A stretch of DNA of 64,000 bases from a bacterium (GTDB taxonomy: Bacteria; UBA8248; JACPRG01; G963555815): positions 928,001 to 992,000 of the forward strand of contig CBDHDG010000006.1 of NCBI GenBank assembly GCA_965261595.1. Direction: 5' to 3'. Below, one piece after another: positions 42,624 to 51,150 of the stretch. Position 1 is the first letter of the stretch. Every line of letters begins with the position of its first letter. Made by a program: the position numbers and the translations under genes. Below the pieces are notes generated by a model. The model searched no databases. It was given only the letters and a program-made list of their open reading frames with translations, and was not told where the DNA came from.

Positions 42624-44024
42624 CTACGGCAGGTCGTTCTTGCTGATCAAAAAATCCCGGACGAGATTGCTCTCTGTCTTGGGAAGTGGAACGGACGATC
42701 CGTTGAGCTCGACGACGGTGCTGGTGGCGTTCCCTATCGTCAGAACAAACGTCTTGTTCCCGCTCCAGCGCCGGCTCTCCCCTTCCAGCAGGAAGATCTC
42801 ATCCCGCTGATTTCCGTCCACAATCACGCGCAGCCAGGTGTCCCCCTTGGCCGTGATGTTCAGAACCAGAGGCGACTGCCAGGAGGATGGGGCGGTTTTT
42901 TTCTTGAGGGTGACTTTCACCTCGGCGTTGTCCACAACCTTTTCGGTTACGGCCTCGCCCGCCGAGGCCGCTCGCGCGTCCGGAGGGGGCGGGGAACCGG
43001 ACTTCGGGATCGTCTCCGCCACCGCGGGCGTCGGCCGGCTGTCCCCCTCGGCCGCGGAGGAAGACGGAAGGATCCCGTTCTTCTTCTCGGCCTGGACTTC
43101 GGGGGTCTTCGGGTTCCGGTCCGCTTTTGGCTTGTTGACCTTCACGGCGGTTTTGGCTTCGGAGACCTTCGGAATTCGGTCCGTCTTCGGCCGGTTGATC
43201 TTCGCGGCGGCTCTGGCTTCGGAGGCCTTCGGCCCGGCCGGGTTCACCACCTTCGGAGCGGCCGGACGGCGCGCCTTTCGGGGGACGGCGCCCACGGCCT
43301 TCTCCGCCGGGGGCTTTTCCCCCTGATCCGGCCCGAGCTTCCACCCTTCGACGTAGAAATAATATCCCACGCCCAGCACCAGAAGGAAGAACGCCGCGGC
43401 GGGGATCCGTGTGCGCAAAGCACGCCGGGACTCCGTGAGCCGGGCGCTCCATTCCGGGAAGATAAAATCGGCCTCTTCCTCAGCTTGCTGGGCGGGGGGA
43501 TGGAACCGGGAGAGAAGGTCATCCGCACTGAGACCGATTTCCGCCGCCAGTATTTTCAGGAACCCCCGGACGATGGGCGTATGCGGGACGTCTTCATATC
43601 GGTCCTCTTCGAGCGCCGATATGATCCGCCCTTTGATCTTGGTGGTGGAAGCCAACTGATCGATGGTGATTCCCGCCGCTTCCCGATGTCGCCGCAGGTA
43701 TTCGCCCAGCGGTTCAGGGGCGGGTGAATCGGCTTCCTCCGTGGAGGGGGGGAGGGGGACATCCTCATCCGGCGCTTTTTCCGTCTGTGAATCCGGGAAA
43801 GACGCGTCCCCCACCGGAGTGAACAGCTCTCCGGGAAACTCATCGTCCAACTTCCCCGAATCCTCATCGGAGACTTCAAGACCCGTCAAACCAGGCTGAA
43901 TCCTATCCGAATAAGCCCCGCTCGAAACATCGGCCGAGGTCTCCCGCGGGGTCTCTTCCGGCGATTGGCCGTTCTGAGCGCCCGTGTCGGATTGAGAATT
44001 CAGATGCTCATCCATGTCACTCAT
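42624..44024 (-). CDS. rodZ: RodZ-like protein (HTH, TM helix, DUF4115 domain)
   Basis: LGEYLRRHRE...TKIK..ALEE HTH, TM helix, C-terminal TWLRVIVDG...IGNA..LNG. Confidence 0.8.
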   Translation of the reverse strand: MSDMDEHLNSQSDTGAQNGQSPEETPRETSADVSSGAYSDRIQPGLTGLEVSDEDSGKLDDEFPGELFTPVGDASFPDSQTEKAPDEDVPLPPSTEEADSPAPEPLGEYLRRHREAAGITIDQLASTTKIKGRIISALEEDRYEDVPHTPIVRGFLKILAAEIGLSADDLLSRFHPPAQQAEEEADFIFPEWSARLTESRRALRTRIPAAAFFLLVLGVGYYFYVEGWKLGPDQGEKPPAEKAVGAVPRKARRPAAPKVVNPAGPKASEARAAAKINRPKTDRIPKVSEAKTAVKVNKPKADRNPKTPEVQAEKKNGILPSSSAAEGDSRPTPAVAETIPKSGSPPPPDARAASAGEAVTEKVVDNAEVKVTLKKKTAPSSWQSPLVLNITAKGDTWLRVIVDGNQRDEIFLLEGESRRWSGNKTFVLTIGNATSTVVELNGSSVPLPKTESNLVRDFLISKNDLP

Positions 44025-44273
44025 CCATCCACCTTCCCATTCGCCCGAAAGGAGACTGGCCCCCCCTACGGGCAAGCAGATCCCCTGATAAGTCGCGCCA
44101 CCCTTTTCTACAACGAAAAATGTACTACACTTGCAAAAGGAATGTCCAATAAACTAATCACTTAACTCTATATGACGCCTCCGGCCCCACACTTCAATCC
44201 TTCCGGAAAATTCAACGTAATTTTTACATATTGAATATTCGGGACCGTGAATGGCGGACCATCTAAAATTCCA

Positions 44274-44305
44274 TTGACTCCGTACCCGACTCCGGGGATT
44301 ATCTT
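44274..44305 (+). promoter_or_regulatory. MerR-type promoter/operator with a long spacer
   Basis: TTGACT (44274-44279), 20-nt spacer CCGTACCCGACTCCGGGGAT with imperfect dyad CCGTAC..CTCCGG, TATCTT (44300-44305); begins like the Tn501/Tn21 PmerT TTGACTCCGTAC. Confidence 0.82.
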
Positions 44306-44366
44306 GACGATCAGCCTTTGACCACGCCGATCGGCGACACGCCTTCTCCCCTAGGAGCTGAGGATA

Positions 44367-44612
44367 ATGGAACAGAAAGAGGTTACCCTATACACATCGA
44401 GCTTGTGAGCGTCTTGCAGAGGCGTGAAAGAGTTTCTTTCACATCACAGCATTCCCTACCAGGAGCACTTGATCGACCAAGACCAGGAAGCGATGAACAC
44501 CTTGGTTGAGAAAACCGGACGCAAAGCCACTCCCGTGCTTCTCATTGGCGAGGAAACCGTGGTGGGCTTTGACCGTCGAAAAATCTCGGACCTTTTGGAG
44601 ATTGGTCGATGA
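44367..44612 (+). CDS. Glutaredoxin/NrdH-like selenoprotein (U-A-S-C; Sec at TGA 44406-44408)
   Basis: GAGG RBS then ATG; MEQKEVTLYTSSL-U-ASC-RGVKEFL...KTGRKATPVLLIGEETVVGFD; SECIS-like hairpin at 44424-44442. Confidence 0.85.
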
Positions 44613-44968
44613 ACGCTTCAGAGCGAAGGCTCCGCTGCCCTGGCTGCGAAATGGACATTCCAGTCCCGTGGGACGCCAAGAACGGCGACGTTACTGAGTG
44701 TGAGAACTGCGCGGGTGTTCTGTTTCGCCTCTCCGAACAGGACGGCGGGGACATCCTGCGGCTCGTGCTGCTTGTCTCGTGTCCTTTCTGCGAGGAGACA
44801 ATCCCGGTGGACGATAACACGCCCGAGGGGACCGTCATTCGTCACGGGGGGGCGGAATTTTCGCTGACGAAGGAGTTCGGCGCTTTCTCGCTGGAGCTCG
44901 CCGGCGGCCAAAGACCCGGCCTGGTTCCGGCAGCGGACGCGGACAAAGCGCGAGGGACGGCAGGTTGA
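44609..44968 (+). CDS. Tandem zinc-ribbon protein (LysW-like fold)
   Basis: CPGC...CENC then CPFC...; ATGA overlap with the glutaredoxin gene. Confidence 0.65.
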   Translation: MNASERRLRCPGCEMDIPVPWDAKNGDVTECENCAGVLFRLSEQDGGDILRLVLLVSCPFCEETIPVDDNTPEGTVIRHGGAEFSLTKEFGAFSLELAGGQRPGLVPAADADKARGTAG

Positions 44969-45267
44969 AGCCGCAAAGATCAATCACGGGAAAAATCATG
45001 CTGGGCGCGGCCTTCTTTCTGTGCCCCTGCCACCTGCCCATCTACCTGGCCCTGTTGGGCGGAACGGCCGCGGGCGCGCTGCTCTCCGAGAACGCGTACA
45101 CCGCCGGGGCCGTCCTGGCCCTCGCGTTCCTCGCGGCGCTCGTTCTGGGGTTGCGCATGCCGGGGAAGAACATTTCCAAGGCCGGGGCCGCCTCGGAGCG
45201 GGACCCATCCGATACCGGAGGGCAACCTCTCCGGCACGGTCGAATCCGGCGGGCGCCCCTTGGATGA
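44965..45267 (+). CDS. merE: MerE-like mercury transporter
   Basis: CPCHLPI...GGTAAGALLSE signature. Confidence 0.82.
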   Translation: MKPQRSITGKIMLGAAFFLCPCHLPIYLALLGGTAAGALLSENAYTAGAVLALAFLAALVLGLRMPGKNISKAGAASERDPSDTGGQPLRHGRIRRAPLG

Positions 45268-45279
45268 GGGAGAATCGCG

Positions 45280-45618
45280 TTGCGCTTGAAAGAGGTATTT
45301 CCCGGAGCGGCCGGCGTCCTGACTTCCTTGGGGGCCTCCATCTGCTGCCTCCTCCCGCTCGCGGTGATTTACCTGGGACTCGGAACGGGATCCTTCATGG
45401 CAACGACCATGAAGTACCGCCCCATCGTATTTCCATTGGGGGTGATCGGCCTCGGCGCCGGTTACTTCCTTTACTTCCGGGAGCGAAAACGCTGTCGACG
45501 CGTGGCGTGCAGAATGGCGGGCTCCAAAATCAACCTGGCCTTGCTGGCGGCGGCGACGATCATCATGGCGGGTGTCGTGTGGGCCGATTTCTTCTCGGGC
45601 GTCCTGGCCATGATGTGA
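45280..45618 (+). CDS. merT: MerT-like mercuric transporter
   Basis: ASICCLLPL in TM1, YRP, cytoplasmic C....C pair, three TM helices. Confidence 0.85.
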   Translation: MRLKEVFPGAAGVLTSLGASICCLLPLAVIYLGLGTGSFMATTMKYRPIVFPLGVIGLGAGYFLYFRERKRCRRVACRMAGSKINLALLAAATIIMAGVVWADFFSGVLAMM

Positions 45619-45635
45619 CGCAAAAGGGGGAAGCG

Positions 45636-45968
45636 ATGTCAGGCGTGCATCGTCCGTGGAATGGGTTGAAATGTGTGGTTCTGGCGGCCGTCTTCGCCAT
45701 GGCGCTCGGCGGGTGCGAAGGAGACCCGGTTCCATCGGCCGAAGCCGGGGAGCGGGTGACTCTGAGGGTTTCGGGGATGACGTGAGGCGCCTGAGCGGTC
45801 ACCGCGAAACCAGCCTTGGAAAGGCTGGATGGAGTGAGAAAAGCCCGGGTGAGCCTCTCGAAGGGAGAGGCGTACGTCACGTATGACCCAAGCCGGGTCA
45901 CGGTGGCGCAGATGATTGCGGCCATCAACCGCCTGGGGTTCAAAGGCGGCATGAAAGAAGGATCGTAG
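45636..45968 (+). CDS. merP: MerP-like periplasmic HMA protein with two putative selenocysteines (GMT-U-G-A-U)
   Basis: Lipoprotein-like leader ending LGGC; VTLRVSGMT-TGA(45783)-GGC-GCC-TGA(45792)-AVTAKPALERLDGVRKARVSLSKGEAYVTYDPSRVTVAQMIAAINRLGF; hairpin at 45810-45828. Confidence 0.85.
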
Positions 45969-46073
45969 GCGGGCCTCGATGGGTCCGCGGAGAGGATTTC
46001 CGCTGATCGGATACGGCCGATGGTCCGGGTGGTCTCCTTCGGCCGGGATACGTTGAGTGGGGGCATGGACAAT

Positions 46074-46301
46074 ATGGAAGATAGAAAGCTGCTTCGCACG
46101 GGAGGCGCGGGGACGGTTGTTGCCGCGATTTGCTGTTTCACGCCGGCCCTCGTCCTGCTGTTCGGGGTGATGGGTCTATCGGCCTGGGTCGGTTGGCTGG
46201 ATTACGTCCTTTGGCCCGCGCTTGTGATATTTGCCGGAATGACGGTCTATGCCCTTATCCGGCTGAGGAAGAAACCATCCGTCCACCGCAAAGGGACCTG
46301 A
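46074..46301 (+). CDS. merF: MerF-like mercury transporter
   Basis: KLLRTG..GTVVAAICCFTP.LV.L...GLSA..GWLDYVL.PAL signature. Confidence 0.9.
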   Translation: MEDRKLLRTGGAGTVVAAICCFTPALVLLFGVMGLSAWVGWLDYVLWPALVIFAGMTVYALIRLRKKPSVHRKGT

Positions 46302-46802
46302 TTCAAAGAAAGGCCGAATAATGAGGTTTTGGTCTTTTCTTCTTTCCATCAAGACACATCTCCCTTCGCCAAGACCAAAACTTTCCTCGCGAGCCGATCA
46401 AACCAATAGTTGAGGGGTCCAAGATGGCTGAGTCCTTGCGTTCCAAAGAGGGTTCCTTGACATTGATTGCCTTGATCGCGGGAGGGGTCTTGCCACTCCT
46501 GATCGTTTTTGGCTCCGCCCGTCTACTGCCCATGCCGACCCTTTTCTGGGCTGTCGGCGTCCCGGCGGAAATCGTTCTTTTTGGGGTTCTGCTCTACGCT
46601 CGTTCGGCCGGACCGGAGCGCTTGTATCGGAGGCTTTGGGTGGGGTGATCGGCGGCGTATTGCTCACCTTGTCATTGGATGCCGTCCGAACCGCAGGGGT
46701 CAACATCGGTTACCTTCCGGATTCCGTGTCGATGTTCGGGCGCTTGGAGTTGACCCGGTTTGGTGGACACCTGATGATTTGGGGGTAAAGGAGGTGTTCA
46801 CG

Positions 46803-47117
46803 ATGCCACAGACTCACCCACGCTATCCAATGGAGTTCCGCTGCCAGATGGTAGAGTTGGTCCGGGCGGGACGCACGCCCGAGGCGCTGGCGCACGAGTT
46901 CGAGCCCTCGGCGCAGACGATCCGCACCTGGGCCCATCAAGCCGACGTTGACGAGGGGCGTCGCAAAGACGGGCTCACGAGCGATGAGCGGGAGGAGTTG
47001 CGCCGACTTCGCCGCGAGAACCGACAGCTCCGCCAGGAGCGGGAGATCTTAGCAAAAGCCGCGGCCTGGTTTGCTCGGGAGACCGATTCGATCCCGTCCG
47101 GATCTACGGGTTCGTGA
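46803..47117 (+). CDS. IS3 transposase OrfA
   Basis: HTH followed by ELRRLRRENRQLRQEREILAKAAAWF. Confidence 0.9.
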   Translation: MPQTHPRYPMEFRCQMVELVRAGRTPEALAHEFEPSAQTIRTWAHQADVDEGRRKDGLTSDEREELRRLRRENRQLRQEREILAKAAAWFARETDSIPSGSTGS

Positions 47118-47965
47118 GGGCGAACCAGGCCATGTATCGGACCGCCACCATGTGCCGGGTGCTGGGCGTCTCCTCCAGCGGCTACTACGCGTGGCGCAGG
47201 CGCGCGCCGTGTGCCCGCTCGTGTGCCGATCGGGCGCTCACCAAACGCATTCAGGCGATCCACGAGCGTTCTCGGGGGACTTACGGCGTGCCGCGCGTCC
47301 ATGCCGAGTTGGAGGCTGAGGGAGTGCGTGTGGGCCGCAAGCGCGTCGCCAGGCTGATGCGTGGGGCGGGACTTGCGGGCGTCAGTCGGCGCAAGGGAGC
47401 GCGCACGACGCAGCGCCGGCAGGAGGCGCGGCCGGCCCCTGATCTGGTGGACCGCAACTTCACGGCCGAGGCCCCCGACCGGCTGTGGGTGGCCGACATC
47501 ACCTACGTTCCGACATGGGCGGGGTTTTTGTATCTGGCCGTGGCGCTCGATGCGTTCAGCCGGCGCATCGTGGGGTGGTCGATGGCCACACACCTGCGGG
47601 CCGAGTTGGTGCTCGACGCGCTCGACATGGCGCTGTACAAGCGCCGTCCCCGGGCCGTCATCCACCACTCCGACCAGGGCAGCACGCAGTACACCTCGGT
47701 CGCCTTTGGGCAGCGCTGCCGGCAGGCGGGCGTGCGTCCCTCCATGGGTTCGGTCGGGGACTGCTACGACAACGCGCTGTGTGAGAGCTTTTTCGCCACG
47801 CTGGAGTGCGAGCTCCTCGCTCGCCACAGTTTCCGCACCCGGGCCGAGGCGCGCATGGAGGTGTTCGGGTTCATCGAGGGCTTCTACAACCCGCATCGTC
47901 GGCACTCCTCCATCGACAACCTGTCACCCGTTAACTACGAAAGGAGACAACAACGCACACCCTGA
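47114..47965 (+). CDS. IS3 transposase OrfB (DDE)
   Basis: WVADITY, HHSDQGS and DNALCESFF motifs. Confidence 0.93.
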   Translation: MRANQAMYRTATMCRVLGVSSSGYYAWRRRAPCARSCADRALTKRIQAIHERSRGTYGVPRVHAELEAEGVRVGRKRVARLMRGAGLAGVSRRKGARTTQRRQEARPAPDLVDRNFTAEAPDRLWVADITYVPTWAGFLYLAVALDAFSRRIVGWSMATHLRAELVLDALDMALYKRRPRAVIHHSDQGSTQYTSVAFGQRCRQAGVRPSMGSVGDCYDNALCESFFATLECELLARHSFRTRAEARMEVFGFIEGFYNPHRRHSSIDNLSPVNYERRQQRTP

Positions 47966-48289
47966 AAACCCAAGTGCTTAACTCTCCACGAAACCGGGGT
48001 AAGTCCATTGCGTTTGGAGTGGTCTATTCAATCCTTTTTGGAAAGACCCGATGGTGGGGCGCCGTGCTTTATAGCGTCTTCTTTGTAGAGCTTGGCATGA
48101 TGACCCTTCCACCGATGGCGAAAATGATGGGACCTTTCGGCGTCAACAAGTTCGGCACAATTTGGAACGGGATGTTCATAACCACATTGCTCGCTCACGC
48201 CGCGATGGGGGTTGTGCTCGGTGTTGTGATTCAGAAGTGGGGAAAGCACCCCGGTTTGTTTTTCTCAAGTAGAAGCATAGGCGCGTAGT

Positions 48290-48538
48290 GTGGTGCTATC
48301 GGAACTTCATATCGAGGGCATGACGTGACCCAAGTGCGTCAAACGGGTCCGTGAGTCCCTGAAAAAATCCCCGGGAGTTCAGGACGTCCAAGTTTCTTTG
48401 GAGACGGGACGGGCCGTTATTTGGATGAAAAAAGGAAGCCTACCCACAGAGGACCTCCTCGAACAGGTGGTGGAAGCGGCCAAAGGCGCCTTCCATTCCT
48501 ACGTCGCCCGCTGGGTTAAACCCCCCTCTTCGAATTAA
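48290..48538 (+). CDS. Stand-alone HMA (CopZ/NmerA-like) selenoprotein (GMT-U-P-K-C; TGA 48326-48328)
   Basis: Absent from the ORF track; MVLSELHIEGMT-U-PKC-VKRVRESLKKSPGVQDVQVSLETGRAVI...; SECIS hairpin weak. Confidence 0.8.
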
Positions 48539-48687
48539 GCCGCATCCGCTGATTCGGAGAGTCATCAGCACCAAATCCCGAACCCTTTTCGGACTCCACG
48601 CAGATGAGACAATCAGAGAGACCCCGGCTGTCATCCAATGCTCCTCGAAGCCGATCTGGATTTTGAGGGAAGCGTTTGGAGAGCGAC

Positions 48688-50044
48688 ATGGCTTTAAAGT
48701 CATACGACCTCATCGTCATCGGAACGGGGTCTGCGGCCTCTGCGGCAGCATCCGAATGCCGCACCGCCGGGTGGACCGTGGCGGTTATCGATTCCCGTCC
48801 TTACGGGGGGACATGCGCCCTGCGCGGCTGCGACCCCAAGAAGGTGCTCGTCGCCGCGGCCGAGGCCCTCCACTGGGGGCATCGCTTGAGGGGCCGCGGG
48901 GTTCGTCCCGGCGATGCGCGGATCGACTGGCCCGAGTTGATGGACTTCAAGCGCACGTTCACCGAATCCGTGGCGCAGAGCCACGAGCGGTGGTTCGCCG
49001 AAGTCGGGATCGACGGATACCACGGGCGGGCGAAGTTTATCGGCCCCGTCTCTGTTCAAGTCGGCGGCGACGATCTGGAGGCCAAACACGTCTTCATCGC
49101 CTCCGGCGCCATGCCGGCCAGGCTCGGGATCCCGGGAGAAGGGCATCTGATCGCGAGCGAAGACTTCCTTGAGCTGGACGAGCTGCCGGAGCGTATCGTT
49201 TTCGTGGGGGGCGGCTACATCTCCATGGAGTTCGCGACCGTTTCCGTCTGCGCCGGAGCTGAGGTCACCGTCCTTCACCGGGGTCCGCGACTCCTGCGTG
49301 GATTCGATCCCGGCTCGGCGGACTTGGTCGCGGAGGCGGCTCGCGGGAGCGGCATCGACCTGAAGTTGGAGACTCGGGTCGAAAGCATAACAAAGACTGC
49401 CGGCGGCTTTGTCGTTGAGGCATCCTCACCCGCGGGATCGCAAACGGTTGAAGCCGACTTGGTGGTGCACGGCGCCGGTCGGGTGGCTGAGATTGAGGAT
49501 CTCGACCTGGGAGCGGCCGGCGTGGAGCGGGGGAAGCGGGGAGTATTGGTGAACGAGTATCTGCAAAGCACCTCGAATCCGGCGGTCTATGCAGCGGGAG
49601 ACGCGGCGCGAAACGGAAGGACAGCCTCTCACGCCCGTGGCAGGGGTCGAAGGAGGGGTTGTGGCAGCAAATCTATTAAATGGGAACAAAGTTAAGCCTG
49701 ATTACACCGGAACGGCAACAGTGGCATTCACATTGCCGCCGATTGCCGCGGTGGGACTGAGAGAAGATGAAGCCAGGAAGAAGGGGCTCAAGTTTCAGGT
49801 GAATTTCCAGGACACGTCTGGATGGTATTCGACACGGCGCATGGGCGAGAAATACTCGGCATCCAAGGTGTTGGTCGAGGAAGACACGGGGCGGCTGCTC
49901 GGTGCGCACCTCCTCGGGCCGTCTGCGGATGAGCTGATCAACCTCTTTGCGCTTGCCATCCGCCACGGTCTCACCGCCGAGGGTCTAAAGGAGGTGATCT
50001 TCGCGTATCCGACGCACGCGTCTGACGTGGGTTATATGGTCTGA
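48688..50044 (+). CDS. Pyridine nucleotide-disulfide oxidoreductase, glutathione-reductase-like (frameshift at ~49608)
   Basis: GTGSAA, GGTCALRGCDPKK, GGGYI and YAAGD motifs, then LTPVA...YPTHASD in the 49589 frame; lacks the NmerA domain and the C-terminal Cys-Cys of MerA. Confidence 0.85.
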
Positions 50045-50100
50045 AGAGCACGCCCTTTGTCCAATTTCGTGATGAGAAAGGGTCATTTGGGAGATGTCAA

Positions 50101-50717
50101 ATGGAAACCTCAAAATTGCCTCAGCTCAGAGAGCATTTCAATCAGGCATGCGATTCCGTGAGGGTTCTTACAATCCTCTCTCCTACCTAACCCGTATGTC
50201 ACTACGGGCATGGAGTTGTCCGGAAGCTCTTCGAGGAGATTGACGCGAATGCGCTCAAGGGTTTTTCAATATGGCTTCCCATCATGGACGGGGACAACGC
50301 CGATGCCGCGAGGGCCGAATCAGAGAATTTCCCGGATGAACGGGTAGAGCACAGTTGGGATTCCGAAGGACAATTTGGCCGGCTCTTTGCGAAGTTTCTC
50401 AATTTGAAAGGTGTCGCGTGGGATGTTCACTTGCTCTACGCGCCGGGTGTCACCTGGGGTGTGGATGAGCCGCCCAAACCTGCATTCTGGATGCACCAAC
50501 TTCCTCCAGTAACGGGAGCCGATGGGAAACTTCTTTGAACCCAGGTAGATTTTCACACGAGCTGATGAATCTCCTTGGAAGAGAGGATCCGCATATGGCT
50601 TGGGATATGGCCTTTATGTTGCACGTTGGCGGTATTGGCGGGGTCATGAGGGAGAGGGCTCAGTCTTCACTGGAAGAGGTCCTCAAGGCCGTCGATCCTA
50701 CGAAGGAAGGACCGTGA
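50101..50717 (+). CDS. Thioredoxin-fold protein with TAA at the first position of an SPT-x-PV-C motif (plus a frameshift at ~50536)
   Basis: METSKLPQLREHFNQACDSVRVLTILSPT-TAA(50188)-PVCHYG...IWLPIM.GD...WD...AWDVHLLYAPG..W...FWMHQL in a single frame; hairpin at 50205-50222. Confidence 0.65.
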
Positions 50718-50721
50718 ATCG

Positions 50722-51150
50722 ATGAAGAATTGCCCGGAGGTTCCTATGGAATCCTTGACGATCGAAAAGGTCGCCCGCGGGGCGGGTGTGAACGTCGAGA
50801 CGGTTCGCTACTACGAGCGCAGGGGGCTGATCGAGCGGCCAACCAGCCGGCGGGGGGCTTACCGGGTCTATCCGTCCGAGACCGTCGGCCGCATCCTGAG
50901 CATCAAGCGCGCCCAGCGGCTCGGGTTCTCCCTGGATGAGATCAAAGAGCTGTTGGCCATGCGATCGGACGCCCGGGCCCGGTGCGGCGACGTGCGCGTC
51001 CAGGCCGAGCGGAAGATGGCCGAGATTGAGGAGAAGATCAAGGCCCTGCGGGCCGTGAAGAAATCGCTCGGCAAGCTCGCCGACGCCTGCCGGAGGGAGC
51101 TGCCTGTGACGGAGTGCCCGATTCTGAAAAACCTGAGCGGGGTTTCCTGA
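50722..51150 (+). CDS. merR: Hg(II)-responsive MerR-type regulator
   Basis: VNVETVRYYERRGL HTH; three Cys (ARCGD, DAC...ECPI) spaced like MerR C82/C117/C126. Confidence 0.88.
   Translation: MKNCPEVPMESLTIEKVARGAGVNVETVRYYERRGLIERPTSRRGAYRVYPSETVGRILSIKRAQRLGFSLDEIKELLAMRSDARARCGDVRVQAERKMAEIEEKIKALRAVKKSLGKLADACRRELPVTECPILKNLSGVS

Follow-up and report, generated by a model that had tools for sequence, protein, structure and literature searches.

A damaged mer-type gene cluster with predicted selenoproteins and a GbsMerA/MerK-type reductase gene in a bacterium of the UBA8248 lineage

The window analysed here is a 64,000-nucleotide (nt) stretch of a bacterial genome assigned to the GTDB lineage UBA8248 (assembly GCA_965261595.1, contig CBDHDG010000006.1, positions 928,001 to 992,000), which contains a putative mercury (Hg) resistance (mer) cluster with predicted selenocysteine (Sec) codons. 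The cluster comprises 11 genes, all on the + strand and bounded by a RodZ-like gene and a DinG-like helicase gene; their order and common orientation are as described in an initial annotation made from the sequence alone. They are preceded by a MerR-type promoter/operator (44274..44305, + strand), consisting of TTGACT, a 20-nt spacer with a CCGTAC-N4-CTCCGG dyad, and TATCTT. The genes encode: (i) a NrdH/YruB-like Sec-glutaredoxin, Grx, with a UxxC motif (44367..44612; Pfam Glutaredoxin), (ii) a tandem LysW-like zinc-ribbon protein, all-Cys in the window (44609..44968; PF21344), (iii) a MerE-family transporter with a CPC motif (44965..45267; PF05052, above the Pfam cut-off), (iv) a MerT-like transporter with a CC pair and a second Cys pair (45280..45618; weak, sub-cut-off MerT matches), (v) a MerP-like exported HMA protein with a UxxU motif (45636..45968; NF041115), (vi) MerF (46065..46301; NF033565 above the NCBIfam cut-off, PF11431), (vii) a membrane protein, present as a pseudogene (46424..48288; 224 amino acids (aa) if intact) and tentatively DUF6789-like, with an 82%-identical intact orthologue in a relative (G003), (viii) a small HMA/CopZ-like protein (48290..48538; PF00403), (ix) a flavoprotein disulfide reductase of the GbsMerA/MerK type, also a pseudogene (48688..50044), (x) a ResA/TlpA-like thioredoxin (Trx)-fold selenoprotein with an SPT-U-xx-C motif (50101..50717) and (xi) an Hg-type MerR (50746..51150). 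Below, G numbers denote genomes (G000 being the one that holds the window, the others relatives) and L numbers denote loci.

Five in-frame stops fall on cysteine positions of CxxC motifs, as the initial annotation had noticed. These are TGA at 44406 in grx (U-A-S-C), TGA at 45783 and 45792 in merP (U-G-A-U), TGA at 48326 at the first Cys position of the HMA protein (U-P-K-C) and TAA at 50188 in the Trx-fold gene (stop-P-V-C). Contigs from four of the 24 listed runs were compared, with X1, X3 and X7 representing three studies and X1 possibly being the source sample; within the contigs spanning the TGA sites, the listed differences explain every difference. All four TGAs were read without any other letter in the X1, X3 and X7 contigs and are therefore not miscalls of TGC or TGT. 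At 50188 the strain has lost a Sec codon by a TGA-to-TAA change, since X3 and X7, and also a close metagenomic relative (L176), have TGA there.

The frame breaks in the cluster are of two kinds. One extra T at 50533 was present in 4/4 runs compared, and the break near 50535 is thus an assembly error lacking one T; with it restored, the Trx-fold frame joins the next 60 codons and gives a gene of about 205 aa, which fits the 205-aa homologues. The +1 frameshift near 49609 in the reductase gene and the -1 frameshift near 46642 in the membrane protein gene are real, since X1, X3 and X7 all show them. An explanation of all frameshifts as long-read homopolymer errors was rejected, as it holds for the break near 50535 alone. 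The membrane protein gene had been described as broken by an insertion sequence (IS), and an IS3-family element (about 46745..48007, + strand), with orfA/orfB and TG...CA inverted repeats, is indeed inserted in the window strain; the IS is, however, only part of the damage, given the -1 frameshift, and X7 lacks it, having 78 other letters at the site. Around 35 near-full copies of the IS occur in the genome. X7 also differs by a 21-nt in-frame, duplication-like insertion at 46274, near the end of merF. Contigs of an RNA run (X17) cover 44335-46613 and 50484-50650, with none over 43600-44147; the X17 strain is about 3% divergent, such contigs cannot demonstrate transcription and uncovered parts prove nothing, so that this is a hint of expression at most.

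The machinery for Sec incorporation, which the initial annotation had named as a point to confirm, was found complete in the genome: adjacent selA and selB, a TGA-containing selD and tRNA-Sec. Codon conservation was followed in 37 stretches from relatives, picked from homology-search matches, some of them because a TGA was visible. In these, the grx TGA is retained in 28/28 orthologues. The double TGA of merP occurs in 14 of the 15 homologues examined, which were partly chosen for TGA, and CxxC homologues exist elsewhere. With U read as C, MerP scores 98.1 bits on NF041115 (cut-off 95), with UxxU present, and a lipobox-like LGGC was read by eye. A MerP search of a genome collection used Cys-coded patterns and therefore says nothing on TGA frequency; 76 of its 80 matches were parsed as CxxC and 4 were unparsed, giving Cys forms exclusively. 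In the Trx-fold family, 13 of the 20 homologue rows have TGA and the other 7 Cys, so at the recoded columns of all three families relatives carry TGA or Cys.

Both grx and merP are also followed by hairpins resembling selenocysteine insertion sequence (SECIS) elements, with an 8-bp stem and a 3-nt loop opening with G, located at +27 from the (second) UGA. The hairpin model was taken from the window sequence and then scored on relatives. In the grx hairpin (44424-44442), pairing reaches 96.9% across 20 distinct rows, one pair being compensatory, and holds in synonymous positions as well; this hairpin is also present in two Acidobacteriota loci. The merP hairpin (45810-45828) is 95% paired, with compensatory pairs at 5/8. 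None of 500 shuffles (0/500) reached the pairing or covariation score, and slid controls were lower. Single-sequence tests gave p=0.01 and 0.025 for merP, and weak values for grx (p=0.08) and the Trx-fold gene (p=0.19). The case for Sec in these three families is accordingly one of conservation, not of single-sequence hairpins. The Trx-fold protein matched no Pfam or NCBIfam family, and its structure model (predicted local distance difference test score 89) matches ResA/DsbE.

The proposal that the stops are Sec codons is thus well supported for grx, merP and the Trx-fold family, by codon conservation and the Sec machinery, and for grx and merP also by hairpins. It does not extend with the same support to the HMA protein, for which homology searches found no close homologue. 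Its TGA at 48326 is present in X1, X3 and X7, and the hairpin after it is unremarkable in the single-sequence test (p=0.57, z=+0.41); a Sec codon or a nonsense mutation would fit this TGA equally well. The zinc ribbon, in turn, carries TGA at Cys13 and/or Cys34, in the CxxC knuckles, in 17/25 full-length homologues, and the all-Cys version of the window retains the downstream hairpin sequence. A SECIS test of the zinc ribbon in a fixed register was not significant, and two loop registers occur. The zinc ribbon had no match on the plasmids searched and was not found in a 119-family selenoprotein table, as far as the accessible part of that source goes (PMC13188914). Examples of its CxxU form are seen at L176:7003, L147:8597 and L147:8660. 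As the initial annotation had foreseen, standard gene callers truncate these selenoproteins.

A crude scan of the genome yielded 35 candidate TGA sites, of which about 25 were redox- or metal-motif-like by eye, and UBA8248 is listed among the most selenoprotein-rich groups in the accessible part of a recent report (PMC13326102). The placement of Sec at CxxC motifs thus appears to be a genome-wide habit of the lineage and, because of this, Sec alone implies no special Hg-selenium pathway.

MerR control is indicated by both the regulator and the promoter. The best match of the window MerR is TIGR02051, with 128.8 bits (cut-off 150.85), compared with 102.8 for CueR. Its Cys80, Cys115 and Cys124, with the C-X8-C spacing, align to the Cys residues of structures 5CRL and 4UA1, and all three are retained in 11/11 orthologues. 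The operator was found upstream of grx in 11 loci from merR-bearing genomes or contigs, mostly as a perfect CCGTAC-N4-GTACGG dyad; it was not found in G022 and is cut off at the contig in G015. In the genus of the window the right arm is imperfect, and a plasmid mer promoter (L218) has the same arm as the window. A long-spacer promoter with a mer dyad, which characterizes canonical mer operons, is therefore present, an alternative 17-nt-spacer reading of the window promoter also being possible. In a separate genus (g7), the operator was absent in 15/15 loci and no such MerR was found in 23 genomes. The mer-type promoter and MerR control proposed in the initial annotation are thereby borne out at the level of sequence.

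Of the transporters, MerF scores above its NCBIfam cut-off, MerE above its Pfam cut-off and MerT below the cut-offs. Over 91 residues, the window MerT is 52% identical to a MerT located right after canonical merA in G045, where the pair of MerT and a UxxU MerP sits behind that gene. Because of the MerR Cys site and best matches, the mer dyad promoter and the linkage to merA in G045, the metal of the cluster is most likely Hg.

The ninth gene had been described as encoding a glutathione reductase-like enzyme. A generic glutathione reductase is not what it encodes: it is of the GbsMerA/MerK type, with PDB 8K40 as the best match (E 2.7e-76 for the N-terminal part). It retains CxxxxC-D, GGGYI (with the gate Tyr) and YPTxxS, and lacks NmerA and the C-terminal CC. 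An intact orthologue, 58–60% identical, lies in the G008 cluster. Glutathione reductase (Gor) was rejected as an assignment, the motif being YPTHAS, not HPTxxE, and the intact orthologue scoring 323 vs 480 bits; gshB (glutathione synthesis) had no match in G000. Canonical MerA is missing from the genome, as stated in the initial annotation: the best TIGR02053 score is 324 bits against a cut-off of 454, and a terminal CC is missing from every flavoprotein inspected (the intact reductase orthologue scores 302 bits on this model). A genome search found no MerB either.

Structures 8K40/8K41 represent GbsMerA of Gelidibacter salicanalis, from the operon arsR-merT/P-GbsmerA; in the available part of that study, NADPH oxidation by the enzyme was fastest with HgCl2, it also acted with Ag, and it raised the Hg tolerance of Escherichia coli (PMC10587081). 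The residues singled out in that study are conserved in the enzyme of the window operon. Glutathione reductase-like genes linked to mer have been named MerK (PMC11227200, accessible part), and we infer that GbsMerA belongs with MerK in a single family. On plasmids, 121 records carry the reductase family. Among the 8 loci viewed, named mer genes were nearby in 6: 5 had canonical merA and 1 had merB and merT without merA, the remaining two being a metal island that has no named mer genes and a locus with nothing of the kind. In five Acidobacteriota loci the reductase follows merT/merP-like genes, two of them also having Sec-grx and Sec-Trx. A sample of 201 Acidobacteriota genomes contained 7 reductase loci in 6 genomes (3 adjoining merT/P, 1 adjoining a Sec-Trx gene and 3 without such neighbours), and canonical MerA was found in 1/5 tested reductase-bearing genomes. 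The gene thus appears to be a mer-associated candidate Hg reductase gene that is dead in this species. Because it belongs to the GbsMerA/MerK type, a reported reductase of Hg(II) and a usual companion in mer operons, the design of the operon would therefore have included a reductase. The description of the operon as one without canonical MerA is correct for the whole genome, yet it passes over this non-canonical reductase gene, which belongs to the operon and is now a pseudogene.

The distribution of the cluster was surveyed in 56 genomes, 51 of them of the class, with a MerR threshold of >120 bits; 23 MerA candidates were scored per genome, and many genomes are fragmented assemblies. This MerR was found in 13/51 class genomes, and Sec-grx, the zinc ribbon and merE accompany it in 13/13. 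The GbsMerA-type reductase occurs in 2/56 genomes, intact in the full cluster of G008 and broken in the window genome, and canonical MerA in 1/56 (G045, itself without this MerR). In G001, a member of the window's genus with the cluster at the identical chromosomal position, everything between merT codon 26 and the end of the Trx-fold gene has been cleanly deleted (L136:7886-8040). L176 is without merT and merP, merT is broken in G016 and G040, and merF is broken in G049. Genus g7 has nothing left but grx, in some cases together with the zinc ribbon.

Taken together, we lean towards the view that the cluster is a Sec-substituted mer relay of a selenoprotein-rich lineage, which ended in a GbsMerA/MerK-type reductase and is now decaying. 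In such a relay, Hg-bound MerR would activate the long-spacer promoter, and the exported UxxU MerP would capture Hg(II), which would then move on to the Cys pairs in MerT, MerE and MerF. Within the cell, Sec-Grx, the zinc ribbon, the HMA protein and the Sec-Trx-fold protein could take over Hg or remove it from the thiols of proteins, and the NADPH-dependent flavoenzyme would, as the terminal step, reduce Hg(II) and/or oxidised thiols and selenols. The window would retain the part of the decaying operon that senses, binds and takes up Hg. Import of Hg without its reduction is harmful, and two further observations speak for the favoured relay: (i) merT, merP or merF are repeatedly lost or broken in reductase-free genomes and loci (G001, L176, G016, G040, G049 and g7) and (ii) a complete intact operon exists in G008. 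The initial annotation had proposed selenium-based capture, transfer or sequestration of Hg under MerR. Its Sec, MerR and operator components hold; a reductase in the design, a decaying distal half and genome-wide Sec use were not part of it.

Several observations weigh against this view. As far as the accessible text goes, the activity of GbsMerA was recorded as NADPH oxidation, not as release of Hg(0) (PMC10587081), and the presence of the family beside canonical merA in 5/8 plasmid loci is accessory-like. MerR, MerT and MerE score under their NCBIfam cut-offs, and a second operator-like site lies upstream of a P1B ATPase gene (C7:774089). Moreover, 11/13 MerR-bearing class genomes have neither a GbsMerA-type reductase nor canonical MerA, and two of these (G024 and G044, both fragmented assemblies) retain merT, merP, merE and merR apparently whole; for these reasons the reductase may be an optional add-on and not ancestral.

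This last point leads to a reductase-independent selenium sink, in which a core of MerR, Sec-Grx, the CxxU zinc ribbon and MerE, together with a UxxU MerP and a Sec-bearing MerT, would capture Hg as Hg-selenolate on small proteins and keep it there or pass it to a selenide/thiol pool, with the reductase optional. Hg binds Se more strongly than S and prefers selenolate. Sequestration of this kind is possible because most relatives retain the core without a reductase, among them G014, which is assembled as a single contig and whose operator is perfect, and relatives extend Sec to the zinc-ribbon CxxU and to a TGA-TGA MerT (four genomes). We nevertheless hold such a sink to be a serious but less likely alternative, as uptake genes were repeatedly lost or broken where the reductase is missing, g7 retains grx, in some cases along with the zinc ribbon, but neither MerR nor operator (so that the pair need not concern Hg), Sec replaces Cys genome-wide, and the reductase-free count depends on 23 scored MerA candidates per genome in many fragmented genomes. 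Its broadest form is similarly tentative: a class-wide, MerR-induced and reductase-free Hg defence, with a two-Sec MerP, Cys- or Sec-Sec-gated transporters, a hold by Sec-Grx and the CxxU zinc ribbon, and at least two uncatalogued selenoprotein families.

Reduction could instead be supplied from elsewhere in the genome, the operon with its Sec-Grx capturing Hg(II) and a MerA-like enzyme encoded outside the cluster, a flavoprotein from the PRK06370 family, reducing it. G000 carries a membrane-fused PRK06370.1-3 gene (C7:11328-12697; L173), in which the one break seen lies in a 12-G run and is probably an assembly error. The family is also present in close relatives and is co-oriented with a merB-like gene in G003. 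A glutaredoxin-dependent MerA-like enzyme of Synechocystis, reported second-hand in the accessible part of one source (PMC8261052), provides a precedent. We consider this split arrangement improbable, since none of the six stretches read that hold a PRK06370 gene has an operator upstream of it, the C7 gene is without a C-terminal CC and its orthology to the Synechocystis enzyme is presumed.

The prospect that the cluster serves another soft metal (Cu(I), Ag(I), Au(I) or Cd), with MerR also driving efflux by a P1B ATPase, is likewise slim. It would make sense of the operator-like dyad with a 20-nt spacer before the gene at C7:774089 for a CPC-type P1B ATPase whose HMA domain has UxxC, as this MerR is the sole match of its kind in the genome, and of the CopZ-type genes in the clusters of some relatives; the action of GbsMerA with Ag would also suit it. 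Against it, MerR has the third Cys and C-X8-C and is closer to Hg MerR than to CueR, ZntR or CadR, MerE and MerF are mer-specific families, the MerT/MerP pair adjoins canonical merA in G045, and a strict operator pattern was found in none of 25 other loci, mostly of HMA-ATPases. In the P1B ATPase gene itself (G000:C7:774089-776600), the HMA domain is C-terminal and its TGA is at the first Cys.

It is scarcely credible that the operon is dead and its stops are simply nonsense mutations: true frameshifts, an IS and a TAA do share the cluster, and the HMA TGA fits this equally well, but for grx, merP and the Trx family the explanation is already refuted by a TGA column kept across the class and Acidobacteriota, covarying hairpins and the full Sec machinery.

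The cluster is a variant mer operon in which known selenoproteins occur alongside others that are apparently uncatalogued, and the window copy is damaged. With canonical mer operons (Tn501/Tn21 merR-merTP(C/F)AD(E), or the Gram-positive merR-first type) it shares the three-Cys MerR, the TTGACT-CCGTAC dyad promoter and the uptake genes for MerT, MerP, MerE and MerF. It differs from them in lacking canonical MerA and MerB in the genome, in having merR last and co-oriented, in the Sec residues predicted for MerP, Grx and the Trx-fold protein, and in the extra grx, zinc-ribbon, membrane protein and Trx genes. The operon of GbsMerA, and MerK, have the same reductase family, without NmerA and C-terminal CC, with Asp after CxxxxC and the Tyr/Ser pair, and the GbsMerA gene adjoins mer transport genes as in the window; in contrast to that operon, the window gene is frameshifted, the regulator is MerR instead of ArsR and selenoproteins are present. 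The UxxU (seleno)protein family NF041115, whose cut-off the window MerP passes, is among the predicted selenoproteins of the table mentioned above, which in its accessible part gives no function or operon context (PMC13188914), whereas the window copy lies in a MerR-controlled mer cluster. The SAO system and Sec-HgcAB likewise combine several selenoproteins per locus with mercury-related homologues, although their gene set differs, the window having MerR and mer transporters (bioRxiv 2022.07.06.499078, accessible part). In that 2022 survey, the NCBI selenoprotein curators, in the accessible text, knew no mercury-resistance selenoprotein and regarded selenium dependence as a strange design (bioRxiv 2022.07.06.499078). 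In a literature search that left most subscription papers outside its reach, we came across no account of a mer operon containing Sec; BSepDB may already list single proteins.

The window cluster thus places predicted Sec in a MerR-controlled mer setting. Together, the genomes form a natural series, from canonical MerA (G045) and the GbsMerA type (G008), through no reductase (G014, G024 and G044), to a grx/zinc-ribbon remnant (g7). This series makes it testable whether replacement of S by Se helps or traps Hg in the MerP-MerT relay, and by what means cells that carry mer uptake genes manage when they have no MerA. Since the window copy is damaged, G008 or G044 would be the better experimental model. 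These proteins are overlooked in mer gene surveys, because standard annotation cuts them short.

Several further Sec-like arrangements were observed among the relatives. MerT-like genes with TGA-TGA at the CC position are present at L139:9010 (G014), L158:7105 (G043), L144:8817 (G016) and L155:1805 (G040), with a stem-loop after each, and no fewer than two are equipped with a mer-type operator of their own; two neighbouring Sec residues would be an uncommon feature for a transporter. A CU form of a MerT-like gene was seen at L241:7086 (G022). At L140:9495-10148 (G008) and other family-f2 loci, MerT is apparently fused to an HMA domain with U-x-x-x-U, a spacing unlike UxxU. A canonical-type MerA gene with TGA at the first redox Cys lies in a Planctomycetales metagenome-assembled genome that has selA (L078:4955); it was not counted as a Sec-MerA, the gene being frameshifted and without a clear hairpin. 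The merB-like genes next to PRK06370 reductases are co-oriented in G003, and convergent and apparently unrelated in G044. Finally, sub-cut-off MerB/SaoL-like genes at L248:4760-5455 (G044) and L250:14083-14841 (G014) are interrupted in frame by one TGA or by two, located at Cys-like positions.

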